Shown: piece by piece, positions 6,937 to 53,379 of the stretch | Layout: each line of letters starts with the position of its first letter | Numbering within the stretch: the first letter of the stretch is position 1 | NCBI GenBank assembly: GCA_965228475.1 | Contig: OZ245817.1 | Coordinates: 480,001 to 544,000 of the forward strand | Direction of reading: 5' to 3' | Origin: Myxococcota bacterium | GTDB taxonomy: Bacteria; Myxococcota_A; UBA9160; JAFDDA01 | Length of the DNA: 64,000 nucleotides | Notes under the pieces: generated by a model | Databases searched by the model: none | What the model saw: the letters and a program-made list of their open reading frames with translations, nothing else | What the model was told of the DNA's origin: nothing | Translations under genes and position numbers: made by a program

Positions 6937-7020
6937 GTCCCCGCGAAGTGAGGCGAAACTGGAGGTCGATGTGCCGATCCCCGAAGCGCTTCGCGGCTCG
7001 ATCCTTCTTCGTGTCACGGG

Positions 7021-7746
7021 TTGAGCCGACCCCCGATTCTCGCTACCGCACCGGCAGGGGGCCGCTGCCGGTTGACGTCGGATGACTCGGGATCCATCGC
7101 GCTGAACGCCGCATCGCTGTCGTACGCCCATGCTCCGGGTGGCCCGGCGCTCTTGACCTTTCCGGACGTCACGATCGGCCGGGGCGAGACCTGTGCGGTG
7201 GTGGGGCCGTCCGGGAGCGGCAAGACGACGCTGCTGCACCTGGTCGCGGGGCTGCTCACGCCTCGGGCCGGCTCGATCCACGTCGCAGGCCAGCGGATGG
7301 ACACGGCCTCCCAGCGCGAACGGGACCGCCTGCGAGGGCGGCTGATCGGCATCGTCCTGCAGCAGCTGCGACTGGTCGCCTCACTCAGCGCGCTCGACAA
7401 CCTGCTGCTCGCCCAAAGCCTGGCGGGGCATCCAGCGGACCGCGAGGCCGCTGTGGAGAAACTGGTCGGGCTGGGGCTCGGGCATCGCCTTCATCATCGG
7501 CCGCGGGAGCTCAGCCAGGGCGAGGCCCAGCGCGTGGCCATCGCGCGCGCGACGCTCGGGCGGCCGGCACTGCTGCTCGCCGACGAGCCGACGTCGAGCC
7601 TGGATGACGCCAACGCGGAGATCGTGCTGCAGCTGCTCACGGAGCAGGCGGTGGAACACGGTGCGGCGCTGCTCGTCGTGACCCACGATGCGCGCATCCG
7701 CGGCCGGCTGGGGCAGGAAGTCGAGCTCGAGCGGGTGGCCGCATGA
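7021..7746 (+). CDS. ABC transporter ATP-binding protein (LolD/MacB type); start uncertain, possibly near 7072
   Basis: Walker A GPSGSGKT, signature LSQGEAQR, Walker B LLADEPT, VTHD. Confidence 0.92.
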   Translation: MSRPPILATAPAGGRCRLTSDDSGSIALNAASLSYAHAPGGPALLTFPDVTIGRGETCAVVGPSGSGKTTLLHLVAGLLTPRAGSIHVAGQRMDTASQRERDRLRGRLIGIVLQQLRLVASLSALDNLLLAQSLAGHPADREAAVEKLVGLGLGHRLHHRPRELSQGEAQRVAIARATLGRPALLLADEPTSSLDDANAEIVLQLLTEQAVEHGAALLVVTHDARIRGRLGQEVELERVAA

Positions 7747-9014
7747 GCCTCGTTCGGCTTGCATGGGCCAATCTGCGCGCCGCGCCCCTGACCAGTGCCC
7801 TGAACGTCGGGCTTCTGGCGCTTGGAACCGCGACCATCGTCGTGCTCTTGCTGCTGTCGCACCAGATCGGCGAGACGTTGACGCGCGACGCCCGGGGGAT
7901 CGACCTGGTGCTCGGCGCCAAGGGCAGCCCCGTGCAGCTGGTGCTCTCGACCGTCTACCACGCCGACGTCCCGACCGGGAACATCCCCCTGGCCGAGGCC
8001 GAGCGCTGGGCCGAAGATCGGCGCGTCGCCCAGGCCATTCCCATGTCCCTGGGCGACAGCGCGCGCGGGTTCCGCATCGTCGGCACGACGCCCGACTACC
8101 CGGCCTTGTACGATGCCGGCCTCGCGGAGGGGAGGCTCTGGGGGGCCAGCCTGGAGGCGGTGCTGGGCGCCGAGGTGGCGCTGGCCACGGGCCTCGGGCC
8201 CGGCGACGTGCTGACCGGGTCGCACGGAATGAGTGGGATGGGTGACCACCACGCCGAATCGCCCTACCGCATCGTCGGGATCCTCGCGCCGACGGGCGCC
8301 GTCGTGGACCGGTTGATCCTGACCGGTCTCGAGAGCGTCTGGGACATCCACTCCGACGGGCATGCTCACGAAGAGGAGGGGGAGCATGAACACGAAGGCG
8401 AGGGCGAGCATGCTCACGCCGACGAGCATGCTCACGGCCACGGCGAAACGCCCGACACCGACGAAGGCCGCGAGATCACCGCGATGCTCTTCCGATACGC
8501 CTCACCGGTCGCTGCGGTCAGCCTGCCGCGCCAGATCAACACCCAATCCGATCTGCAGGCGGCGGCTCCGGCCTTCGAGCTCACGCGGTTGCTTCGGATC
8601 GTCGGCCTCGGGCTGGACGGCCTGCGGGCGTTCGCCGGGGTGCTGATCGCATCCGCGGCGTTCAGCGTGTTCGGCGCGATGTACGGCGCGTTGCAGACCC
8701 GTCGCGGCGAGCTGGCCATGATGCGTTGCCTCGGCGCGACCCGCGAGAAGCTCATGGCCAGCTTGCTGATCGAGGGGCTGCTCCTGGGGCTGGCGGGTGC
8801 ATTGCTCGGTCTGGCGCTGGGTCACCTGACGCTCGAAGCGCTCGGTGCGGTGCTCGCCGATGGGGGCGCGCTCCCGCTCACGGGTCGGATCCTGCTCCCG
8901 GAAGAGCTGGCGCTGGCCGCGGCGCTCGTGCTCGTCGCGCTGCTCGCCGCCGCGCTGCCGGCCTGGCAGGCGTATCGCACCGATGTCTCCCGCGCGCTGG
9001 CGACTCACGGATGA
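7743..9014 (+). CDS. FtsX/MacB-type ABC permease with His/Glu-rich periplasmic insert
   Basis: IDLVLGAKGSP.QLVL..VYH motif; HAHEEEGEHEHEGEGEHAHADEHAHGHG insert; C-terminal TM helices; ATGA overlap with ATPase. Confidence 0.9.
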   Translation: MSLVRLAWANLRAAPLTSALNVGLLALGTATIVVLLLLSHQIGETLTRDARGIDLVLGAKGSPVQLVLSTVYHADVPTGNIPLAEAERWAEDRRVAQAIPMSLGDSARGFRIVGTTPDYPALYDAGLAEGRLWGASLEAVLGAEVALATGLGPGDVLTGSHGMSGMGDHHAESPYRIVGILAPTGAVVDRLILTGLESVWDIHSDGHAHEEEGEHEHEGEGEHAHADEHAHGHGETPDTDEGREITAMLFRYASPVAAVSLPRQINTQSDLQAAAPAFELTRLLRIVGLGLDGLRAFAGVLIASAAFSVFGAMYGALQTRRGELAMMRCLGATREKLMASLLIEGLLLGLAGALLGLALGHLTLEALGAVLADGGALPLTGRILLPEELALAAALVLVALLAAALPAWQAYRTDVSRALATHG

Positions 9015-42213: not shown

Positions 42214-43038
42214 ATGGTGTTCCGCAGCCGCCGGGTTCTCGTCTGTGCCGTGCTTGCCGGCGGGTGGCTTTGCGGAGGAGGCCCCGCTCGGGCGCTGGAG
42301 ATCGTCGGCCGGTTCAACGGAGGCGACCTCCCGGCTCCTGCGCTGCTCGCGGGCGGCGGCTCGGTCGAGGAGGTCTTCGAAGCGGCCGCCTCGCTCTGGG
42401 AAACGCACATTCTCGATTCCCACACCCTCGAGATCCAGTACGCCTGGGTGGCCTTTCCCGACGATACGCTCGGCAACGCGTTCGGGTTCGCCGGCCCCGA
42501 TGGCCGGGTGACGTCGGCCTTCATCACCCTCGACAACGACAGTCCCTGGTTCCTAGACCCGACACCCGGGGATTCCTCGGAATGGGCGAGCTTCCTCGAG
42601 CAGCGCTTCGATCTCGGCGCGGGCGAACTCGTCGTCGGGCGGGACTTCACGGATCCGCTGGGCGATGCCCAGCTCGGATGGGACCTCTTCACGGTCTTTC
42701 TCCACGAGATCGGCCACGCCCTCGGCATGGGCGTCGAGTACGCGCGCTACCGAGCCGAAACCGCGGACGGCGACGTCGACGTTGCATCGCCGCTGCCCTT
42801 CGCCGGGACGGAACTCCTCGTGACACCGTCCGGCGGCGCCCACCTGCTGTTGACGTCCGCCTTGCTCTTCCCCTCCGTGAGCCGGGACGCCCGCACGCTC
42901 CCCTCCGATGCCGACGTGCTCGCCGTGGCCCAGGCGGGAAACTTCCGCGAGGTGAGTCTCGCGGTTCCCGAGCCGAAGCTCGTGGGGCTGCTGCTCGCCG
43001 CCGGGCTCGGTGCCGCGTACTTCCGCCGCCCTCGCTAG
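42214..43038 (+). CDS. PEP-CTERM matrixin-like zinc metallopeptidase
   Basis: Signal ending ARA; HEIGHALG; VPEPK + TM + RRPR tail. Confidence 0.85.
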   Translation: MVFRSRRVLVCAVLAGGWLCGGGPARALEIVGRFNGGDLPAPALLAGGGSVEEVFEAAASLWETHILDSHTLEIQYAWVAFPDDTLGNAFGFAGPDGRVTSAFITLDNDSPWFLDPTPGDSSEWASFLEQRFDLGAGELVVGRDFTDPLGDAQLGWDLFTVFLHEIGHALGMGVEYARYRAETADGDVDVASPLPFAGTELLVTPSGGAHLLLTSALLFPSVSRDARTLPSDADVLAVAQAGNFREVSLAVPEPKLVGLLLAAGLGAAYFRRPR

Positions 43039-45383
43039 AGGAGCGGTTCGAGCCGGAGTGTCTCTCCGCGCACCTCCTCGAAGTGCGCGGGCAGCGCATC
43101 GAGCTCGCCGCGGAGCCACGGCTCGATCTGGTCGTCGTAGTGCGGGTCGAAGGGGTGGCCGGCCTGGCCGCCCGGGAGGATCGCGCGGATGCGCATCGGG
43201 TCCCCCATCTCGACGACGGTGCGCATGGCGGCACCGGCTCGGACGCGCTCCGGACGGTCGTATCGGTAGCGGGCCCGTCCCACGCTCGCGTGGTCGCCGC
43301 CCCAGGGAAACGGTCCGCGGTCGAGCCAGCGGGAAAGCGGCGGGACGGCCGCCGCCAGCTCGTGCACGAGGTGGACGGCGTGGTTCGCTTCCCACCGCCA
43401 GCTCGCGTCGTTCGGATCGAAACCCTGGCTCGCCGTTTCGAGGGCGCCGCGGACGAGGGTCTGCCGCTCGCCCCGCCACCACGGGGACGCTTCCGTCGGG
43501 GCGAGGATCAGCCCATCGAGGGCGTGGTTCAGGACGTAGTTGTTCTTCAAGAGCCGTCGATGGAGCTCCGGCCCGAGACGCTCGGCAAAGACCGCCTCCG
43601 CCAGGGCGAGGTACCAGCGCAGGAAGATCGTCGGTGCGGTCGCCGCGGGTTCGTTGACGAGGCCGGGCTCGGCGGCCTGCCAGGCCTCGAGCTCCGTCCG
43701 CGCGCTCGCGGCGGCAGGCGAGAGCGCCCCGTCTCCCAGCAGCGTGAGCAGGTGCGGCAGGAGACGCGCCGCCTGTCCGTTGTGCCAGTCCATCTGGAGG
43801 GCGCGCATCGTCTCCGGCGTGTGATCCCGGCGGCCCGCGAGTACTTCCTGGATCCGGCCGATGCGGTAGCCCGGCGCGTTGTCCGCGGAGACGAGCGGGC
43901 CGGCGCCCGGCGGGTTCACCCGCGCGTTGGCCGCTGCGACGAACCCCTTGGGCGGGTCGATCTCCCGCGGCAGCTCCGCCATCGGGATGAAGCCCCGCCA
44001 TCCCGCTTCCGCCTCGTGGCCCGGCTGCGGAAGGAGCCCCGTGCCCCGGCCGCGCACCGGCAGGAGCCCGACGCTCCGGAAGGCGATGCGGCCCTCGGCG
44101 TCCGCATAGGTGGCGTTGGCGCTCGGCGCGGCGAGCCGGTCGAGGGCGTCGCTCGCGGCGTCCCAGTCCTCTGCGAGGTTGAGTGCGAACAGCGCATCGA
44201 TCCCGAAGCGGTGCTCGGCGGCGTGGTGGCCCGTCCAGGCGAGCGAGAGCGGCGGGTCCTCCTCGAGGAGCGGGCCGTGGCGCGTGTGGACGATCTCGAA
44301 GACCTCGTCCTCACTGCCGCGGACCCGGATCCGGGCTTCCTCGGTGCGCGCCTCGTACCAGCCGTCCGGCCCGAGGAAGCGCAGCGGGTCTTCGGGGTCG
44401 CGCGTCTCGAGGAAGAGGTCCTGGCTGTCGCCGATGTTCGTGAAGCCCCAGGCGAGCCGGTCGTTGATTCCGTTGATGACGCCCGGCAGCCCCGGCACCG
44501 ACCAGCCGCGCAGGCTGCGTTCGCCGAAGAAGAGGTGGACTTCATAGTGGAGGTTCGGGAGGGCGAGCGCATCGTGGGAGTCGAAGGCGAACAGCGGCAC
44601 GCCGGAAGCCGTTCGCGAGCCGGCGACCGCCCAGCCGTTGCTGCCCCGCGAGAGGCTCGGGAGCAGGGCCTGTTCGTAGGCGTCGAGGGCGTCGCGCCGG
44701 GCGAGCATGCGCCGCGCCGCGGCCGCATCCACGACGTAGGGGAAGTCCGGGACGCGGGATTCGTCCGGGAGGAACGCGGCGATCTCCTCGGGCGAGGTCG
44801 CGCTCGCGATGGCGTAGCGCAACAGCTCGTTGCCGGCGTTCCGTCCGGAGGCGTAGGCCATGGCCGCGCCGAGGGCGTAGACGTCGGCCGGTGTCCAGCG
44901 GCGAAGGGGAGTCCAGGTGAGGAGGAGTTCGGGCGGACGGGCATCGAGCCCTTCGAGCCCGGCGTTCACGCCGTCGACGTAGCGGCCGACCAGGGTCCGT
45001 GCTTTCGCATCGGCGTTGGCCTCGATCTCCGCGGCGAGCTGCGGCACGCCCATCTTCCAGAGTTCGCGGTCCGTCTCGAGCAGGGGAGGGCCGAGCAGCT
45101 CCGCGAGCCGCGCCTGGCCGGCGCGGCTGAGAAGCTCCATCTGCCAGAGCCGTTCGCGGGCGTGGAGCACACCCTGGGCGAAGAACGCGTCGCCGAGCGT
45201 CTCGGCGCGCACGTAGGGCCGAGCGCGTTCGTCGAAGCGGATCGTCACCGGCGCAGCGAGCCCGGGAAGCGCGAGCGTCCCGGTGCGCTCGATCCGGGAG
45301 GCGTGGACCCGCCAGCCGAAGACGAGTGCACCCGCCGCCAGTGCGAGGAGCAGGAGCCCGAGCGCCTGGCCGAGGCGCTTCAC
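43035..45383 (-). CDS. Penicillin acylase family Ntn-hydrolase (peptidase S45)
   Basis: N-terminal TM; AQGVLHARERLWQM; GSNGWAV N-terminal nucleophile; PGGQAGHP..PHY.DQ. Confidence 0.93.
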   Translation of the reverse strand: MKRLGQALGLLLLALAAGALVFGWRVHASRIERTGTLALPGLAAPVTIRFDERARPYVRAETLGDAFFAQGVLHARERLWQMELLSRAGQARLAELLGPPLLETDRELWKMGVPQLAAEIEANADAKARTLVGRYVDGVNAGLEGLDARPPELLLTWTPLRRWTPADVYALGAAMAYASGRNAGNELLRYAIASATSPEEIAAFLPDESRVPDFPYVVDAAAARRMLARRDALDAYEQALLPSLSRGSNGWAVAGSRTASGVPLFAFDSHDALALPNLHYEVHLFFGERSLRGWSVPGLPGVINGINDRLAWGFTNIGDSQDLFLETRDPEDPLRFLGPDGWYEARTEEARIRVRGSEDEVFEIVHTRHGPLLEEDPPLSLAWTGHHAAEHRFGIDALFALNLAEDWDAASDALDRLAAPSANATYADAEGRIAFRSVGLLPVRGRGTGLLPQPGHEAEAGWRGFIPMAELPREIDPPKGFVAAANARVNPPGAGPLVSADNAPGYRIGRIQEVLAGRRDHTPETMRALQMDWHNGQAARLLPHLLTLLGDGALSPAAASARTELEAWQAAEPGLVNEPAATAPTIFLRWYLALAEAVFAERLGPELHRRLLKNNYVLNHALDGLILAPTEASPWWRGERQTLVRGALETASQGFDPNDASWRWEANHAVHLVHELAAAVPPLSRWLDRGPFPWGGDHASVGRARYRYDRPERVRAGAAMRTVVEMGDPMRIRAILPGGQAGHPFDPHYDDQIEPWLRGELDALPAHFEEVRGETLRLEPLL

Positions 45384-46240
45384 GCCGCCGCGTCGAGCCC
45401 CGCGCGCGCGCTCACGTCCTGGCAGGCCGCGACGAGGGCGGGTACGAAGACGTCCGCGCGAGCGACGCAGGCGGCGTGGTCCCCCTCCACCTCGAACACG
45501 CGTGCGCCGGGGATCGCCTCCGCGAGCCCGCGCTGGCGCCGCGGCGGGACGAGTTCGTCCTTCGTCGTGACGATCACGGCCGTCGGGACGTCGACCTCCC
45601 CGATCCACGCGTGCGAGGAGAAGCTGCCGACGGCGCCGGTCGCCTGGATCACGCTCGGACCGTCGTGGCCCGAGAGTTCCTCGGCGACCCGGCTGCGCAT
45701 GCCCTCGTGCTGGATTCCCGAGAGCGTGCGTTCGAGCATGCGGCGCTGCACGAGACCGGGGACGAGCCGCGCGCCCGTGGCGACCCAGGGCATGAGCCAC
45801 CGGGCGAAGGGGCTCGCGTGGCGTGTGCTGAAATGTCGCGCCGTCGCGGCGAGGACGAGGCCGGCGATGCTCTCGGGGTGGCGCCGCCAGGCGAGCGAGG
45901 CGATCGGTCCGCCCATCGAGTAGCCCACGGCGATGAGGCGTCTCGCTCCGAGATCGAAGGCCGCGTCGACGGCGTCGTCGGCGCAGTCTTCGAGCCGGAA
46001 GCGGCGCGTGCGCAGGCCGCGGCCGTGGCCGCGGTGGTCGATCGCCAACACGCGGAAGTGTTCGGAGAGCGGGCGGAACGCGGGGCCCCAGTTCAGCCGG
46101 GCGGTGGCGCCCAGGCCGTGGAGCAGCAGCACGGCAGGCGCGTCCGGGTGCGGCCCCGGGATGTCCCGCATGAAGACGTCGCCGCGTTCTTCGAGGGTGA
46201 TGATGCGGTCGATCGGCCGCTCTTCTTCCTTTGCCGCCAT
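45380..46240 (-). CDS. Alpha/beta hydrolase
   Basis: LLHG, DHRGHG, GYSMGG nucleophile elbow, DELVPP, GDH. Confidence 0.92.
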   Translation of the reverse strand: MAAKEEERPIDRIITLEERGDVFMRDIPGPHPDAPAVLLLHGLGATARLNWGPAFRPLSEHFRVLAIDHRGHGRGLRTRRFRLEDCADDAVDAAFDLGARRLIAVGYSMGGPIASLAWRRHPESIAGLVLAATARHFSTRHASPFARWLMPWVATGARLVPGLVQRRMLERTLSGIQHEGMRSRVAEELSGHDGPSVIQATGAVGSFSSHAWIGEVDVPTAVIVTTKDELVPPRRQRGLAEAIPGARVFEVEGDHAACVARADVFVPALVAACQDVSARAGLDAAA

Positions 46241-46331
46241 GAATCTCCGTCCCGTCCTGCGCGTCCGAACCATGATGGCACGCCCCGCGCTTCTTGACCC
46301 CTCGGACGGTAGTTGGGACACTCGACGGGTG

Positions 46332-47108
46332 ATGTCCGCCCGAAGCTCCCGCCCGGCATCGTGGAAGCGATGGCTCGGCGCCGCCGTTCTCGGTCTCGCC
46401 GCGTTTCAGATGAGCCTCCCCGCCCTGGCCATGGAGGGCCGCGGCCGCAGCATGGAAGGGCGCGGCCGGGGCCCGATCCGCATGCCCATGCCGCCGACCG
46501 GTCCGCCCCCGAGCCTGCCGCCCGGGACGATCCTGCCGGGCATGCCGCCGGGCGTGAGCCAGGCGATCCTGAACTCGCTCCGCCGCCGCTCGATTCCGCG
46601 CATGGGCCCGATCTCGGACGAGCAGCTCATCGCCGAGCTCAACGCGGAGCTGCGGCGCGCCCAGAACGATCTCAACAACCACCAGGGCTCGTACAACATC
46701 ATCCGCGTGATCAAGTACGGAGGCGCGCTCGTCGCCGTACTCACCGGCACCGCCTTCTTCGGTCCGGCAGGGGGTCTCGCCGCAGGCGCGCTTTTCCGCG
46801 GCACGGAGGGGACGACCGAAGTGTTCGTCCGTTCGAGGGATTCCCAGCGGACCGGCCGGGAGGTCGTCTACCAGGGGCTCGGCGAGCTCGCCGGGGCGGC
46901 CACTGGGAATCCGGTCGTCGGATTCGTGGTTCGGGCCGGGACCAAGGAAGGCGCCCGCGCGATCGGCGAGGCCGATCTCACCTTCCTGTTCGAGAACGAG
47001 AAGAAGCGCGGCGGGGTGAAGACCTCGGGCGCCAACGCGCGAACGGAGAGCTCGCACCCCGGTTTCGGACCCTCCTCGCCGGCCGGCTGGCGGGGGCCGA
47101 TCAAGTGA
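46332..47108 (+). CDS. Secreted hypothetical protein (MEGRGR repeats, Pro-rich, coiled coil, Gly-rich hydrophobic helices)
   Basis: Signal ending PALA then MEGRGRSMEGRGRG; host-like codon usage; GTGA overlap with next gene. Confidence 0.75.
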   Translation: MSARSSRPASWKRWLGAAVLGLAAFQMSLPALAMEGRGRSMEGRGRGPIRMPMPPTGPPPSLPPGTILPGMPPGVSQAILNSLRRRSIPRMGPISDEQLIAELNAELRRAQNDLNNHQGSYNIIRVIKYGGALVAVLTGTAFFGPAGGLAAGALFRGTEGTTEVFVRSRDSQRTGREVVYQGLGELAGAATGNPVVGFVVRAGTKEGARAIGEADLTFLFENEKKRGGVKTSGANARTESSHPGFGPSSPAGWRGPIK

Positions 47109-47977
47109 CGGAGTTCCGCCGGCGGGGCGCCCGCCACGCTTTCTCCCTCGTGTTCGGTCTGCTCACTCTCTTCGTGGGGCTTCCCGCGGCCGGGGCCGAA
47201 CCCGTCGACGACGCGGCCGTGGCCGCGGGCCTCGACTCGCTCCACGTGAGTCAGACGGTGGCCTGGGCGCTCGAGGGCGTGGCCCGGCCGGAGAAGATCG
47301 GCCGCGTGCGCTTCGCCGCAGAAGCCGCACGCCCCAGGCTGGACCCGGATGTCCATGCCGCCGGCATGCGCCTCGCCGACGTCACGATCGCGGGCGAGGA
47401 GGTCGCGCAGGAGGGAGGCCGGCGCGTGTTCGGCACGCTGACCCACGAGAGCCCTCTCGGCTTCCGGGCGATCAACGACTTCGCGGCCCGCTACCGCACC
47501 GAGAAGGGACGCTACGTCGTCGAGGAGAGTCACGCGCAGGCCCGCTTCCTCGAGGCGCCGCGGGTCGCGTTCGCCGCGGTCGAGGCGGCGAAGGTGCCCG
47601 CGGAGTTCCTCGGCGGCGCCTACGAGCCCCATCGGCTCGTTTCATTCCTGAGGAAGAACGGCGTCGACCCGACGCGGGTCGACGAGGCGCCGCGCGAGTA
47701 CGTCGTGTTCGCCGTCCTGCTCGACCGCCTCCCGCCCGGGAAGGGGTTCTTCGTCTCCGACGAGACCAGGAAGAAGAAGAAGCCCAAGCGCACCGAAGCC
47801 GGGCTGACGGTGTTCTCGCGCGAGCGGTGGCACGCTGCCGCGCTGCGATCGACCTTCGCCTTCGGCGCGAAGAAGCCCCGCTACTTCCACGCCGCCGTCA
47901 CGGACGAGCGGGGCCGTTCCAAGCGCGTCGGTCTGCTCGAAAGCGGCGGTCTCGTCCCCTTCGAGCCGGAGGGATGA
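47105..47977 (+). CDS. Secreted hypothetical protein
   Basis: GTG 47105; signal ending AAGA; coupled to both neighbours by 4-nt overlaps. Confidence 0.75.
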   Translation: MTEFRRRGARHAFSLVFGLLTLFVGLPAAGAEPVDDAAVAAGLDSLHVSQTVAWALEGVARPEKIGRVRFAAEAARPRLDPDVHAAGMRLADVTIAGEEVAQEGGRRVFGTLTHESPLGFRAINDFAARYRTEKGRYVVEESHAQARFLEAPRVAFAAVEAAKVPAEFLGGAYEPHRLVSFLRKNGVDPTRVDEAPREYVVFAVLLDRLPPGKGFFVSDETRKKKKPKRTEAGLTVFSRERWHAAALRSTFAFGAKKPRYFHAAVTDERGRSKRVGLLESGGLVPFEPEG

Positions 47978-49284
47978 GGCCGCTCGGGCGGCGGGCCCTT
48001 CTGAAGGGCGCGCTAGGCAGCGTGGCCCTCGGGCTCGCGGGGTCGCGTCTCGGGCGCGCGGAAGTTGCTCCCGCGAAGACCGCGACCTACTTCGTGCCCG
48101 GGTATGCACCGGATCGGGCCTACCACCGGGGGCGCCCCGTGCGCGAGGATCCGGCGCTCACTGCCGCGGTCCCGCGAGATTGGCAGGGCGCCCTCTCGCT
48201 CCTGACCCGGGTCGACGAAGGCGACGGCTCGGTCCGCCGCGCGCTCTTCCCCGTGGCCGGCCACGAGATCACGATCTCCCCGGACGGCCAACACGGCGTG
48301 TTCAACAGCCTGAACGACGGCCACTGCGTCGCGTTCTCGCCCGAAACGCTCGAGTCCCGCGGCATCCACTCCCACGGAGAGGGCTTCATCGGCGCGGGGC
48401 ACGCCTTCTATCTGCCCGAAGGCGGCCCGCTCGTGATCGCGGAAAGGCGGGAGTGGCGGGCGTACACGGGCAAGCCCGAGGATCACCACGGCCGCATCAC
48501 CCTGCGCGACCCGGAGACCTTCGCGCTGCTCGAAGCCTTCGATTGCCGCGGCATGGCGCCCCACGAGATCGGTCTCACCGCGGACGGCCGGCACGTCGCC
48601 GTGGCGAACTACGGCAAGACGCTCTGGCCCGACGGCACCTGGCGCGACGGGCTGCTCCATCGCGTCGCACCGAGCCTGACCGTGATCGAGCTCGCGAGCG
48701 GGCGGCTCGTCCACGAGGTCCGAAACCCGGACCCGCGCCACGAGGTCCGTCACCTCGCGGCCCACAGCCTCTCGCGCGTGTTCGCGATCTCGGCGCGGAT
48801 GGAGAGCTTCGGAGAGGGGCAGAAGTCCATGCGCGACTGGGAGGAAGGCGTCTACGAAGCGGACGTCTACTCCGGCGGCGAAGAGATCGGGTACCTGCCT
48901 TCGCCGCTCCTGCGCTACGAGCTCACGGAGGGTCCCTCCCGGGCGACGGAGTCGTTCACCGAGGACCCGCTCTTCATGCGCTACGGCCAGAGCATCGTCT
49001 ACGACCCGGCCCACGACGAAGTCATCGCGACCTATCCGACCCGGCACGCGGTGGTGGTCTTCTCGGGAGAGGACGGCGCCGTCCGTCGCGTCCTCCGCAC
49101 GGATCGCCTGGGTCTGCGGCAGCCGCGCGGCGTGGTGCTGCACCCCGATGGCAGGCACTACGTCGTTTCGGGATGGTGGCAGGGCGCGCGGGCCTTTTCG
49201 CGGGGGGAACACGCGCCGGTGTCGCGCCTCGACCGGCACGAGGTCTGGTTCGGCCACAGTCACCTGGCGGTTGCGGCGGCCTGA
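47974..49284 (+). CDS. Tat-exported DUF1513-like beta-propeller protein
   Basis: GRRALLKG twin-arginine signal; GH, GHA, APHEIGL..DG..VAVANYG, PSL..I....G.L, RHLA motifs. Confidence 0.75.
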   Translation: MRPLGRRALLKGALGSVALGLAGSRLGRAEVAPAKTATYFVPGYAPDRAYHRGRPVREDPALTAAVPRDWQGALSLLTRVDEGDGSVRRALFPVAGHEITISPDGQHGVFNSLNDGHCVAFSPETLESRGIHSHGEGFIGAGHAFYLPEGGPLVIAERREWRAYTGKPEDHHGRITLRDPETFALLEAFDCRGMAPHEIGLTADGRHVAVANYGKTLWPDGTWRDGLLHRVAPSLTVIELASGRLVHEVRNPDPRHEVRHLAAHSLSRVFAISARMESFGEGQKSMRDWEEGVYEADVYSGGEEIGYLPSPLLRYELTEGPSRATESFTEDPLFMRYGQSIVYDPAHDEVIATYPTRHAVVVFSGEDGAVRRVLRTDRLGLRQPRGVVLHPDGRHYVVSGWWQGARAFSRGEHAPVSRLDRHEVWFGHSHLAVAAA

Positions 49285-49294
49285 ACGTTCCCGG

Positions 49295-50248
49295 TCAGCG
49301 CCCCATTCGGCCCATGCCGCGCCCTTCGACGCGAGGCGGGGAGGGCGGCCGGCCGCGGCCTTCCATCGGCACCTTCGGCCCGGTTGCACCCGGCGTGACG
49401 ATCGGGCTCCGCCCCGCGGCGCCGCGGCGGACGTTCTCGCGGGCGGCATCGCCGCCGGGCCCGCCGTTCTCCGTCGTCATGTCGTCGAAGTCGACGCCGA
49501 GGCGGTCCTCGGCGAGCTGGCGAAGGATCTCCCGCGCCCGCGGGTTGTCGATGCCCGTGATGAACTGCCAGAGCGAGTCGATGTCCTGCCGGTCGGCGTC
49601 GATCCGGTCGAGCATGCCCGAGAGTTCCTCGAGCCGGTCGTTCAGCCGGGTCGCCCCGCGTTCGATGCGCCGGCGGGTCCGGGCGACGCCGGTGCGGTCG
49701 ATGTGGGCGTCGAGCCGTCCGCCGACCTCGGCGTCGAAGTATTCCTCGAGCAGCGCGCCGACCTCGCCGGTGCGGTCGAAGATCGGCCGCAGCGGGCGCT
49801 TGGCGATCTCGAGCACGCGGTTGCGGATGCGATCCACCTGTTCGAACACGTGACCGACCGGCCCGGAGACGTGGCGCGCGGCGTTGCGGACCTCGTTCTG
49901 GACACCCCGGGCCACCGTCGTCGCTCCGCGGACGGCGCCGTCTTCGCCGAACAGTCCGTGACCGACCTCGCGGACGAACACGACGAGCGGGAAGCCGCGG
50001 CTGCGCCGCCGGCGGGCCGCGCGCCGCGCCGCCAGCCGGGCGGCTTCCGCGGCCGCCGCCTGCCGCCGCTCCTCGTTCAGCTGGCCGAGGTTCCCGCCCC
50101 GCTCCTGGTCCGCCGCCGCACGCTGCTGACGCATCGTCTCGAGCGTGCTCTGCAGGCGCGAGACCGTCGGGGAGGTTCCCTCCGGGTTCGCGACCGCGTC
50201 GGGAGGGACGAAGGCGAGGAGCGCCACGACGAGCATGAAGCGCTTCAT
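49295..50248 (-). CDS. Secreted coiled-coil hypothetical protein with C-terminal MEGRGR motifs
   Basis: Signal MKRFMLVVALLAFVPPDAVA; helical body; tail PMEGRGRPPSPPRVEGRGMGRMGR. Confidence 0.75.
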   Translation of the reverse strand: MKRFMLVVALLAFVPPDAVANPEGTSPTVSRLQSTLETMRQQRAAADQERGGNLGQLNEERRQAAAAEAARLAARRAARRRRSRGFPLVVFVREVGHGLFGEDGAVRGATTVARGVQNEVRNAARHVSGPVGHVFEQVDRIRNRVLEIAKRPLRPIFDRTGEVGALLEEYFDAEVGGRLDAHIDRTGVARTRRRIERGATRLNDRLEELSGMLDRIDADRQDIDSLWQFITGIDNPRAREILRQLAEDRLGVDFDDMTTENGGPGGDAARENVRRGAAGRSPIVTPGATGPKVPMEGRGRPPSPPRVEGRGMGRMGR

Positions 50249-51153
50249 TGCAGCACCAGGGGGTTGGCGCGCACGTAGAAGAGGCCGCCGTCCTTGAACC
50301 CCACCGAGAGCTGCCCGGTGACGACGACCTCGCCGGCCTTCATCACCGCATCGGTGAGCTCCATGTACTGGTACTTCTCTTCGCGGATCAGCTGCGACAT
50401 GTCGGCGAAGCGCATGCCGTTCAGGAACTGGTAGGGCCGGACGAGGGGCACGAGGGCTTCGACCTTGTCCGCCTTGAAGCGCTGCTCGTCGAAGAGGCGG
50501 CCCTCGACGAAGGTGAACTCGCGTCCGAGCCGGTGGTAGGTCCAGATCTCCGTCCGCACGACGAGCTTGGTCTTCGCCTTGTTGGCCGCGACGTAGATCG
50601 CGAAGTCATCGGGCATGCCGTGCTTCGCGATGACCTTGCGCTGGGCGGCGCTCGCTTCGTCGAGCGTCGCGAGGTTGGCGACGGCGGCGTCCGCCCAGGC
50701 ACTCTCGGGTGCAGCGGACGCAGCGGCTTCGTAGTCCGCCCGGGCCTTGGCCCAGTTCCCCTGCCGCTCTCGCGCGAGCCCGCGGTGGTAGAGCGCGGCT
50801 GCGCTCTTCGGCTCCTTCGAGATCGCGTGGTCGAAGTCCTTGATGGCCTTGCCGACACGTCCACGCTGGAGGTGGTGCAGGCCCCGCGCGACGCGCACGT
50901 TCGTTTCGCCGGGCCGCTTCTTGACCTGCTGGTCGAGGAAGCGGGTCTTCAGACGGCCGATCTCCGGGCGCGGGTTCTGCGCGGCGGCTTCGGCATCCGC
51001 GGAGAGGTGCCACTCCTTCAGCCAGAGATCGACCTGCGAGAGGGCGGCGACGTCGGTCGCGAGCGGCGGCCAGGGCCCGGCCTCTGCCCGACCAGCTGCC
51101 AGGAGCAAGAGCATCGAGAGCGGGAGAAGGAGCCGGACACGAAGCGATACCAT
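50245..51153 (-). CDS. Secreted TPR-repeat protein
   Basis: Signal ending AEA; ARG...G...KAIKDFDHAI..EP, ALYHRGLA...G...ARADY..A TPRs. Confidence 0.82.
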   Translation of the reverse strand: MVSLRVRLLLPLSMLLLLAAGRAEAGPWPPLATDVAALSQVDLWLKEWHLSADAEAAAQNPRPEIGRLKTRFLDQQVKKRPGETNVRVARGLHHLQRGRVGKAIKDFDHAISKEPKSAAALYHRGLARERQGNWAKARADYEAAASAAPESAWADAAVANLATLDEASAAQRKVIAKHGMPDDFAIYVAANKAKTKLVVRTEIWTYHRLGREFTFVEGRLFDEQRFKADKVEALVPLVRPYQFLNGMRFADMSQLIREEKYQYMELTDAVMKAGEVVVTGQLSVGFKDGGLFYVRANPLVLQ

Positions 51154-51216
51154 GGGTCCAGTCTATGCCAGCGCCCGCCGCGAAGGGAAGGCAGCAGATC
51201 CCTCGCTGCCGGCGGC

Positions 51217-52056
51217 TCAGCTCTCGGCGGCGTCCTTCGTCCGGTAGTCGCCGAAGGGCTGGTCGCGTTCCTGGAGTGTGGCGGTGAGTCCCTGTCTGGC
51301 GACCTTGGCCATGAACTCGTGCAGGCTCTTCTGGTGCGTGCCGAGGGCACAGAGTTCCGAGCCGGCGCGGATGCCCGTGTGAAGGCCCATGATCTCCATC
51401 TGGCGGTGCACGACGCGCTTGTTCAGCTGAACGAGATCCTCGGGAACGCCGACGATGCGCTTGGCGACGTCGAGCACGCGCGCCTCGAGCTCTTCGGCCG
51501 GGAAGGTGTCGTTCGCCCAGCCGAGCCGCTTGGCCTCGTGGCCGTCGATGGAGTCGCCGGTGAGCATCATCTCCATCGCCTTGCGCATGCCGACGAACCA
51601 GGCGTGGAAGTGGTTGTCCGGCACGCCGAAGCGCACGGCCGGATATCCCATCTGCGCATCGTGGGCCATGTAGACGAGGTCGCAGCAGGTCGCGAGCTCG
51701 CTGCCGCCCGCCAGGCAGTAGCCGTGGACCTGGGCGATCACGGGCTTCGCGAGCTCCCAGATGCTCATCCAGCCCTGGGTGACGTGGCGCGGCCAGTGGC
51801 CGTCGCCCCCCGCCGTGTACCACGGGAACTCCTGGCCGGCGCTTCCGCCGGCGAGGTCGTAGCCCGAGGAGAAGCATTTCCCCGCGCCGCGCACGATCAT
51901 CACGCGCACCTCGGGGTCCGCGTCGGCTTCGCGGAGCGCTTCGAGGACGCCGCCGCGCAGGGCGTGGTCGAGAGCGTTGCGTTTCTCGGGCCGGTTCAGC
52001 GTGATGCGCCGGACGGCCGGGGCGGGTTCGTCGGTGAGTACGACGTCGGAGCTCAT
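51217..52056 (-). CDS. Enoyl-CoA hydratase/isomerase family protein
   Basis: LNRPEKRNAL, FSSGYDL, KPVIAQVHGYCLAGG. Confidence 0.93.
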   Translation of the reverse strand: MSSDVVLTDEPAPAVRRITLNRPEKRNALDHALRGGVLEALREADADPEVRVMIVRGAGKCFSSGYDLAGGSAGQEFPWYTAGGDGHWPRHVTQGWMSIWELAKPVIAQVHGYCLAGGSELATCCDLVYMAHDAQMGYPAVRFGVPDNHFHAWFVGMRKAMEMMLTGDSIDGHEAKRLGWANDTFPAEELEARVLDVAKRIVGVPEDLVQLNKRVVHRQMEIMGLHTGIRAGSELCALGTHQKSLHEFMAKVARQGLTATLQERDQPFGDYRTKDAAES

Positions 52057-52117
52057 GGTTCCTCCGTGAAAGGGTCGCGCGCGCTTCGCGCTACGCTCGG
52101 GCTCGGGGGGATACGCG

Positions 52118-52789
52118 ATGAGCATGATACGCGGATTGGTGCGCGGCGTGGGCTGGGTCTTCGTCCTCGGTGGCCTCGCGCTGGCCGGGGTTGCGGGCTA
52201 CGGGCTGCTGCGCGCCCAGCTGGCCGACGAGATCCTGCGCGGGCGCCTCGACCTGCTGGCCGAGGACTACCGCGACCTGCACGGGCGCTACGAGGCGCTC
52301 GTGGCGCGAACGGCGGTGACCGAACTCGTGGTGCGCGACGGCAGCCTCTCCGTCGTGGTGCGGGGCGCACACGGCGAGCTGCGGGAGATCCCGACGCCCT
52401 ACGACCCGACCTCGGAGATCTACGTCGACTACGCCCTGGTCGACGGCCGCCTCTTCGTCCGGCGGGTCTTCGCCGACGACGTGCCGCCGCGGGAGGGCGT
52501 GCTCGTCGACCCGGCGCTGCTCGCGATCGATTGGCAGGAGGCGAATGCCCAGTACGGCAAGGCGGCCTACCGGACCCTCGGCGAGGGCCGGTGGGTCGTG
52601 ACGGTGACCGGCGGCGGTGCGCTCGGGCTCGCCCCGGCCGGGGCCGAGCCGACCGTGCTCGCTCCGCCGCCCGCGCTCCGGGAGTTCGAGCCCGTGGCGA
52701 GCCGCGTCGACGAACGCCTCGCGACGATCCAGCCGTCCGAGGTGTGGGCCGTCCTCCGCGCTAGAGTCCCCGCGGAGGTCCAGCCATGA
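52118..52789 (+). CDS. Membrane-anchored hypothetical protein
   Basis: N-terminal TM, short coiled coil, beta-rich domain; ATGA overlap with next gene. Confidence 0.75.
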   Translation: MSMIRGLVRGVGWVFVLGGLALAGVAGYGLLRAQLADEILRGRLDLLAEDYRDLHGRYEALVARTAVTELVVRDGSLSVVVRGAHGELREIPTPYDPTSEIYVDYALVDGRLFVRRVFADDVPPREGVLVDPALLAIDWQEANAQYGKAAYRTLGEGRWVVTVTGGGALGLAPAGAEPTVLAPPPALREFEPVASRVDERLATIQPSEVWAVLRARVPAEVQP

Positions 52790-53379
52790 CGTTGTCCCAG
52801 ATGATCCGCGGCGATGCCAAGATTCTCGAGATCGCCCAGCACCTCGATTCGCTCTCGCACGGGCAGCGCCTGACCGAGACCCAGGAGCTCTCGGCGAGCG
52901 ATCAGAAGAAGCTCTTCCGGGCGGCGGCGGATTCGCCGCCCCTCGACTTCGAGTTCTTCGTGCCGGCCGCGAAGTCGGCGCTCGCCGAGGTGATCCACCA
53001 CGGGAAGAACAGCCAGCCGGCCTTTCGCAACTTCCAGAAGCGCTGGTGCCGTCCGGCCGACCGCGGCGACGCCCTCTACGGCTACAACGAAACCGTCGTG
53101 CGGCCGCTGATCGGGCCGGGCTACTTCGTCGCGCACGAGACCGCGGACGGCGGGCGCGACCCGCGCGGCGCCATCGTGGTCGACTACTTCCAGGTGCCCG
53201 AGGGCGACGTCGCCACGGGCTGGCCGGCCGTGAAGCCGAACTCGAGCGGCCTGCAGCGCTTCGTCTACGACAAGACGCGCGACTACATGCGCCGCGTCTC
53301 GAACCACGTCTCGATCGGCGAAGCGCACAAGAACGAGAAGAACGTGCTCGGCTGGTTCATCCTCTGCCGCGAAGACTGA
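52786..53379 (+). CDS. Hypothetical protein
   Basis: RBS GGAGG, host-like codon usage; H.GKNS, F..FQKR, GYN, GPGYF, DY.R.VS.HV.IG motifs. Confidence 0.8.
   Translation: MTLSQMIRGDAKILEIAQHLDSLSHGQRLTETQELSASDQKKLFRAAADSPPLDFEFFVPAAKSALAEVIHHGKNSQPAFRNFQKRWCRPADRGDALYGYNETVVRPLIGPGYFVAHETADGGRDPRGAIVVDYFQVPEGDVATGWPAVKPNSSGLQRFVYDKTRDYMRRVSNHVSIGEAHKNEKNVLGWFILCRED

Follow-up and report, generated by a model that had tools for sequence, protein, structure and literature searches.

We analysed a 64,000-nucleotide stretch of the genome of a Myxococcota bacterium (the window; contig OZ245817.1 of assembly GCA_965228475.1, positions 480,001 to 544,000 of the forward strand). The host genome is complete and consists of a single contig of 5.0 Mb with a guanine-cytosine (GC) content of ~71%. 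The subject of the analysis is a cluster of five genes, here called g1 to g5, in which two operons meet tail to tail. One of them, g1-g2-g3, is a translationally coupled operon around a gene for a DUF1513 propeller, and it recurs in a few unrelated bacteria; the five genes together are not one conserved unit. The elements of the cluster are listed below in window coordinates (GC3, GC content at the third codon position).

46244-46331, presumed promoter region of g1-g2-g3, in the divergent intergenic region between a hydrolase gene and g1; its length is uncertain, as the start of the hydrolase gene is uncertain
46332-47108, + strand, g1: hypervariable exported protein (GC3 0.88)
47105-47977, + strand, g2: exported protein of an unnamed family, NTF2/VirB8-like and Ig-like domains predicted (GC3 0.91)
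47974-49284, + strand, g3: DUF1513 seven-bladed propeller with a Tat signal (GC3 0.89)
49285-49294, convergent gap: 10 nucleotides between the two stop codons, read from the sequence
49295-50248, - strand, g5: exported Arg-rich helical protein (GC3 0.92)
50245-51153, - strand, g4: exported TPR protein with a C-terminal domain (GC3 0.90)

Long spurious open reading frames (ORFs) are common at high GC content, and codon-position GC was used to separate genes from chance ORFs. The alternative ORFs overlapping the five had GC3 values of 0.63-0.78, as compared with 0.88-0.92 for g1-g5, with low GC at the second codon position. All five, placed at these coordinates in an earlier note on this DNA, are real coding genes. 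The same note had described two translationally coupled operons ending 10 nucleotides apart, and this organization was confirmed by the 4-nucleotide start/stop overlaps at g1/g2 (GTGA), g2/g3 (ATGA) and g4/g5 (ATGA) and by the gap at 49285-49294. A DNA scan found no terminator-like hairpin in the 10-nucleotide convergent gap and no match to a sigma-70-like consensus upstream of g1 (46244-46331); neither the promoter nor the terminator scan gave anything exceeding shuffled expectation. Inspection by eye revealed no obvious Fur box upstream of g1.

The five N-termini all carry positive charge followed by a hydrophobic stretch. Kyte-Doolittle windows of 19 residues scoring at least 1.3 were found at residues 14-36 of g1, 8-34 of g2, 1-24 of g4 and 1-23 of g5. 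The g3 N-terminus had no such window and has the double arginine (RR) of the twin-arginine translocation (Tat) pathway instead. With cleavage sites read by eye, all five products thus appear to carry export signals, as the note had claimed. Pfam and NCBIfam gave no family match for g1, g2 and g5, and PADLOC none for any of the five genes. In PHROGs the sole match was a weak one to g4 (phrog_7590, unknown function, E 5.7e-4); the other four genes had none.

The description of g3 as a DUF1513-like propeller with a Tat signal was supported. The protein matched Pfam PF07433 (DUF1513) with 58.9 bits (cut-off 27) over model positions 6-300 of 304, and with 57.4 bits in the scan of the genome. A Tat-type RRALLK motif occupies residues 6-11. 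Across 60 homologues R6 and R7 show a conservation of at least 90%, and for some of the homologues there is a precomputed match to PF10518 as well. The AlphaFold model of g3 is a seven-bladed beta-propeller, with a predicted local distance difference test score (pLDDT) of 93.5 and a predicted template modelling score (pTM) of 0.91. A large protein search retrieved 96 homologues, all of them PF07433 proteins and mostly ~432 amino acids long; the named ones are alphaproteobacterial. Within the host's order, g3 matches were found in 5 of 193 genomes, the host included. In G096 and G100 they belong to canonical imelysin-DHOR-imelysin-DUF1513 operons, and in G006 (45% identity) and G099 (38%, cut by the contig end) they are stand-alone g3-like genes. 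The contig of G006 was the sole match in a search of genome contigs for related loci.

Several lines of evidence set g3 and its closest relatives apart as a distinct DUF1513 subfamily. In the tree the canonical proteins of G096 and G100 formed a separate branch of length 5.45 away from the g3 subfamily, and g3 of the window was sister to the g3-like protein of metagenome locus L027 (support 99/99). In this tree the G006 row is a wrong ORF, with a long branch, and the partial L034 row is absent. Seven residues occur without exception in all 61 sequences aligned, the two canonical proteins among them: H97, H143, H197, H260, H430, E157 and R259. The subfamily has further near-invariant histidines at 358, 413 and 428, the last two of which are replaced by other residues in both canonical proteins. 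H97, H143, H197 and H260 lie on model strands 96-101, 138-146, 196-201 and 256-263, respectively, which we interpret as inner strands of consecutive blades. Since four invariant histidines would then be contributed by successive blades, the model suggests an axial metal or catalytic site.

The partners that usually accompany DUF1513 are missing from the host. Neither imelysin (PF09375) nor the di-haem protein DHOR/DUF1111 (PF06537) had a match anywhere in the 5.0-Mb genome, and control genomes were matched in both searches. Their absence, observed earlier for the window, thus extends to the whole genome.

The second gene of the operon, g2, encodes an exported protein whose family has neither a name nor a Pfam model. 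This family is fairly large, and its members are predicted to combine an NTF2-like with an Ig-like part. A word-based search of 5.8 billion protein clusters returned g2 alone. This was a false negative, corrected by a profile search: with a profile of five members, 469 representative clusters were found at E<=1e-3, 389 at <=1e-10 and 126 at <=1e-30. Every family member that was looked up is labelled hypothetical. No match to g2 was found among PDB sequences or in Pfam. The g2 model, based on 98 sequences (pLDDT 89.1, pTM 0.80), has a predicted NTF2/VirB8-like domain at residues ~35-150 and a predicted Ig-like beta-sandwich at ~148-282. With residues ~36-147, VIA-align gave Z values of 9.2 (3ub1_A), 9.0 (8s7l_A) and 8.7 (3wz3_A); with residues 148-282, Ig-like chains scored 7.6/7.2. 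These values are only slightly above the background of 7-8 stated for the tool. Because the excess over background is modest, the similarity of the N-terminal domain to NTF2-like domains of conjugation proteins would indicate a shared fold, not family membership. Foldseek with the g2 model returned nothing at E<=0.001. An assignment of g2 to DUF3108, for which ESM Atlas features gave a lead (0.91, 151 shared features), was rejected, as none of five g2-family members matched PF11306 (E<=1).

Some proteins of the g2 family are longer forms (P0148, P0187 and P0108), and some have a tandem duplication, with two or three matched stretches per protein. Other long members appear, by eye, to be fused to peptidoglycan-binding or dockerin-like segments.

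Among 401 sampled genomes of the phylum, the g2 family was found in one, the host itself. Because of this distribution the g1-g2-g3 module was probably acquired by the host. A tblastn search of 72,556 plasmids with g3 and g2 gave no match.

The product of g1 has a signal-like N-terminus, and two copies of the hexapeptide MEGRGR directly follow the putative cleavage site (ALA|M). They are followed by a Pro/Gly-rich linker, an NNHQGSY motif and, at residues 123-154, a hydrophobic Gly/Ala-rich stretch. The start of g1 is ambiguous between Met1 and Met27. The public annotation uses Met27 (232 amino acids), which would remove the signal peptide. Over codons 1-26 the g1 frame exceeds the other two in GC3, though with a value of only 0.77. 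In the word-based search of the 5.8 billion clusters g1 was a singleton, retrieving itself alone, and no relative was found in Pfam, NCBIfam, PDB sequences, PADLOC or PHROGs. Its best ESM Atlas score, 0.80, is at noise level.

Recurrence of the operon was studied from g3 outwards. An initial metagenome scan for related loci gave no match; 22 metagenome loci were obtained when the pattern scanned for was built from ten aligned close homologues of g3. Clustering of the ORFs around the g3-like genes revealed one recurrent neighbour family, present in loci L027, L031, L034 and L044. A profile of these four neighbours, from which g2 had been excluded, aligned with g2 by hhalign over 232 columns (96.3% probability, E 1.6e-9). 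Thus, by BLAST clustering and hidden Markov model (HMM) search, a g2-like gene stands beside a g3-like gene in 4 of the 22 loci. An HMM search of all fetched loci found the g2 family nowhere beyond these four and the window.

In all four loci the g2-like gene is adjoined by a g1-like gene. The g1-like proteins have a signal sequence, a Pro/Gly/Arg-rich low-complexity segment and an N-[ND]-[HNA]-x-[WY] motif, and most of them have a hydrophobic Gly/Ala-rich stretch of 30-40 residues. As their sequences are not significantly similar, they count as positional and architectural analogues, not as demonstrated homologues. The window and L027 have the genes in the order g1-g2-g3, L031 and L034 in the order g3-g1-g2; the g1-like and g2-like genes of L044 run in the opposite direction to its g3-like gene. 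The GC content of the loci with the trio varies from 0.45 to 0.71.

Most g3-like genes have unrelated, housekeeping-type neighbours, and a number of other neighbours were recorded. A second pair of recurrent neighbours was seen in L003 (from G006; 6950-8936) and L031 (4-1937): the gene beside the g3-like one encodes a protein with an autotransporter beta-domain (PF03797, E 1e-27 and 1.5e-23), and the gene adjoining it a related alpha/beta-hydrolase-like protein in which a GDGHA...SGGG pattern occurs. Small exported proteins are encoded beside the g3-like genes of L037 (1438-2070, - strand), L032 (9539-10000, + strand) and L044 (9583-10656, - strand). They have runs of 8-15 glycines, either C-terminal or just past the signal peptide. 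Taken with the Pro/Arg-rich segments found in g1-like proteins, these glycine runs suggest a general tendency of the g3 subfamily to have low-complexity exported proteins as neighbours. Giant repeat proteins adjoin g3-like genes in L035 (963-7382, - strand), L042 (588-5723, - strand) and L043 (5766-9851, - strand); two of them have bacterial TSP3 repeats (2140 and >1712 amino acids), the third DUF11 and PG_binding_1. L038 and L039 (5927-12359) are related to each other; in both, the g3-like gene has a DUF1194 gene with a multi-PAS histidine kinase on one side and a PAS-GGDEF diguanylate cyclase on the other.

The convergent operon consists of g4 and g5. The presence of a TPR protein, pointed out in the note, was confirmed for g4: repeats at residues ~80-165 matched TPR_2 with 44.1 bits (cut-off 27, E 1.3e-11), TPR_9, TPR_16, TPR_1 and TPR_11 were also above their cut-offs, and consensus TPR chains in the PDB matched with E 5.7e-30. 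The C-terminal domain of g4 (residues 160-302) is rare. It matched G162 (E 1.2e-12) and G159 (E 1.4e-4), so that 3 of the 193 genomes of the order have it, the host included; in the sample of 401 genomes of the phylum it was found in the host only. The three sequences share 26 invariant columns. In G159 and G162 the g4-type domain is joined to different N-terminal parts, and the gene directly downstream encodes a signal-bearing basic protein. By BLASTP these downstream proteins had no significant similarity to g5, and position is all that they share. No match to g1, g2 or g3 was found by tblastn at the G159 and G162 loci at E<=1e-3 (best E 0.019-0.035, for g1 and g2 in L053).

No convincing relative of g5 was found in the 193 genomes of the order, two matches with E 0.002 and 0.006 being taken as chance, and no match among PDB sequences. 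Its Pro-rich C-terminal tail carries MEGRGR, followed by VEGRGM. In the six-frame translation of the genome MEGRGR occurs three times, twice in g1 and once in g5. The relaxed pattern [MVLI]EGRG[RMK] has 21 matches, four of them within g1 and g5. These four copies do not represent a simple DNA repeat, because their codons differ. A paralogous relationship between g1 and g5 was rejected, as only the short motif aligns (E 0.038).

Among sequencing runs searched for contigs, which attest presence only, X1 and X2 contain the stretch at 100% and may be its source. In a marine metagenome run (X4), a contig of 5301 bases matches 50399-51589 of the window (g4 together with the start of the adjacent hydratase gene); the two differ at 17 of 1191 bases, and the match starts at the end of that contig. 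The near-identity means that a close relative of the host occurs in that marine sample.

The cluster is flanked by the following genes.

42265-43038, + strand, small metalloprotease-like gene, further left
43035-45377, - strand, penicillin amidase, left flank
45380-46321, - strand, alpha/beta hydrolase, left flank
51217-52125, - strand, enoyl-CoA hydratase, right flank, 63 nucleotides upstream of g4

A hydrolase gene and an enoyl-CoA hydratase gene also flank the trio in L027. This is probably coincidental: the identities are 25% and 33%, respectively, and a signal peptide is present in the hydrolase of L027 but absent from that of the window. The protein encoded at 42265-43038 has a HEIGHALG motif and a weak match to Pfam Peptidase_M10 (E 6.9e-6). 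Its C-terminus consists of VPEP, a hydrophobic stretch and RRPR, which we take to resemble a PEP-CTERM sorting signal. On the other side, 52118-52789 and 52786-53379 (both + strand) form a translationally coupled pair with no Pfam match.

The five-gene region was not found in G001, a genome of the same genus (89% complete), and the two genomes are too rearranged to place insertion borders. The pair at 52118-53379 is kept in G001, with 68% protein identity for the first gene and 75-81% DNA identity for both; there the enoyl-CoA hydratase gene sits on a different contig from the relatives of the pair.

With moderate confidence, we favour the reading that two separate modules lie tail to tail in this locus: g1-g2-g3, comprising a periplasmic metal-site propeller and two accessory envelope proteins, and, separately, g4-g5, which as far as searched adjoins g1-g3 in the host genome only. 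The idea of an undescribed module put forward in the earlier note thus stands for g1-g2-g3 around the propeller, found in 4 of the 22 loci, and is not supported for the five genes as a conserved unit. The occurrence of the genes together in other organisms, which the note had proposed as a test, gave the same division: the trio recurs, the full set of five does not.

What the analysis demonstrates is that the genes are real, which families they belong to, that the trio recurs, how the proteins are predicted to fold and which residues are invariant. Beyond this, we infer metal binding, complex formation, a cellular location and a function for g1-g3 as follows. The g3 protein would be a Tat-exported metal-binding or redox propeller in the periplasm. 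That it is probably metal-loaded and periplasmic is suggested by Tat export together with the set of conserved His, Glu and Arg residues, and by analogy with canonical DUF1513 its role would most likely be iron-related. The g2 protein could serve as an adaptor or scaffold for the propeller. The fast-evolving g1 protein may be a membrane-embedded tether or client, its hydrophobic segment being of hairpin length. As a pair, g1 and g2 would replace the imelysin and di-haem partners that the host genome lacks. In the other operon, the gene for a TPR protein with a rare C-terminal domain is followed by that for a basic helical exported protein.

Several observations weigh against this reading or narrow it. 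Gene context was examined from the g3 side only, that is, in one direction. Of the eight metagenome loci with at least 6 kb on either side of the g3-like gene two carry a g2-like gene, and neither G006 nor G099 has one. For this reason we regard the propeller as standing mostly alone and the association of the trio as a minority pattern. Homology of the g1-like proteins could not be demonstrated: hhalign of g1 with an alignment of three analogues gave a probability of 1.7%, and phmmer comparisons among g1-like proteins were non-significant for all pairs except L031-L034. As for the putative metal site, the convergence of the histidines on the propeller axis is read from strand positions in the model, not from distances, and the structural neighbours of g3 are generic propellers in a flat list (Z 25-31), uninformative on function. 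The restriction of MEGRGR to g1 and g5 speaks against two fully independent modules. Locus L041 offers a partial parallel: there the g3-like gene is followed by genes for a secreted low-complexity coiled-coil protein and then a TPR protein, although the match of the latter to g4 is weak (E 0.007) and confined to the TPR region.

The last two observations are what could be expected if, as the note proposed, all five genes formed one functional system in which g4 and g5 work with g1-g3. MEGRGR would then be a shared mark by which g1 and g5 are recognized or processed. We consider such a system unlikely. It would explain why all three genomic copies of MEGRGR, and four of the 21 relaxed-pattern matches, are in these two genes with codons too different for a simple DNA repeat, and it would suit the 10-nucleotide distance between the operon ends and the export-type N-termini of all five products. 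Yet none of the four other trio loci, including the closest one (L027), has a counterpart of g4 or g5. The failure to find a convincing g5 relative in the order points the same way, as do the occurrence of the g4 C-terminal domain in G159 and G162 with no significant g1-g3 match nearby and the weakness of the L041 TPR match. A different possibility is that g1 is a secreted membrane-active peptide or toxin of the bacteriocin type, g2 its immunity protein or chaperone and g3 a maturation enzyme. The hairpin-length Gly/Ala-rich stretch of g1 and its analogues is compatible with this, as is the very fast evolution of g1-like proteins, which toxin and immunity genes often display, and the patchy distribution of the module (1 of 401 phylum genomes) fits horizontal transfer. 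However, g1 matched no toxin, bacteriocin or pore-former family in the five resources searched, its Atlas scores are at noise, and the cluster contains no exporter, no immunity-like membrane protein and no secretion-system gene. We found no support for a secreted toxin and think it very improbable. The roles suggested in the note, a secreted membrane-active protein, a modifying enzyme and a chaperone, likewise gained no support, g1 having no detectable relative and g2 being predicted to be NTF2/VirB8-like plus Ig-like.

The opposite view is that there is no module, and that lineage-specific exported genes have come by chance to surround a stand-alone DUF1513 gene. The housekeeping-type neighbours of most g3-like genes, the lack of the region in G001 with heavy rearrangement between G001 and the host, and the orphan-like nature of g1 and g5 are all in line with it. 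It is hardly likely in view of the adjacency of g2-like and g3-like genes in four independent loci of varied gene order and GC content, always with a g1-like gene, and of the 4-nucleotide overlaps that join g1 to g2 and g2 to g3. Finally, the trio may process proteins in the periplasm, as a system not described so far: the His-lined metal centre of the propeller would modify or cross-link low-complexity, Pro/Gly/Arg-rich exported clients. The g2 protein would then be an NTF2/Ig adaptor presenting clients to the propeller, and MEGRGR, in the host, a recognition tag on two of them, at the mature N-terminus of g1 and the C-terminus of g5. We give this idea little credence; if true, it would suggest a role for canonical DUF1513 in iron-starvation operons.

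The reading of a propeller operon beside a separate g4-g5 pair turns a proposed five-gene extracellular system into a recurring trio and an unrelated pair, and leaves MEGRGR as a concrete puzzle. DUF1513 proteins are widespread partners in iron-starvation operons. The g3 subfamily has the same invariant His, Glu and Arg residues without imelysin and di-haem proteins, and so offers a simpler setting in which to study metal binding by the propeller and its targets. The g2 family, defined in this work, is a new family to be named.

Comparison with known structures placed g3 among generic propellers. Its closest fold neighbours were the YVTN S-layer domain 1l0q (Z 30.9), 6-phosphogluconolactonase 6nau (29.7), hydrazine synthase beta 5c2v_B (29.3), BtuG 8ptf (28.3) and YncE 3vgz (28.0), and the beta subunit of quinohaemoprotein amine dehydrogenase (1jju) was a further one. 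The similarity extends over 279-309 aligned residues (Foldseek E 5e-13 to 1e-10), but identity is 12-16% and no function is singled out. We know of none of these propellers that carries the five-His pattern.

The N-terminal domain of g2 resembles, in the model, the periplasmic NTF2-like domains of the conjugation and type IV secretion proteins TcpC (3ub1), OrfG (8s7l), TraM (3wz3) and VirB8 (2cc3): residues ~36-147 aligned with Z values of 9.2-7.8 and a root mean square deviation of 2.8-3.4 A over 95-106 residues. In contrast to these proteins, whose identity to g2 is 6-10%, g2 is not accompanied by type IV secretion or conjugation genes in the part of the window that was examined, and the NTF2-like fold is very common.

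The system closest to g1-g2-g3 is the canonical DUF1513 operon. PMC3143127 presents PA4370-PA4373 of P. aeruginosa as an imelysin/DHOR (DUF1111)/imelysin/DUF1513 operon. In a fitness study (10.1101/072470) cofitness was seen between canonical DUF1513 and an EfeO-like/DUF1111 operon, for which the authors propose a role in ferrous iron uptake; in the literature searched the term DUF1513 was found in this study alone. Like the canonical proteins, g3 belongs to DUF1513, has a Tat-type RR and shares the seven residues invariant also in G096 and G100. Unlike them, it comes from a host that has neither imelysin nor DHOR and belongs to the ~432-residue subfamily on a distant branch, whose recurring partners are g2-family and g1-like proteins. 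What is new here is the recurring setting in which DUF1513 is found, and with it a partner family that has no name yet.

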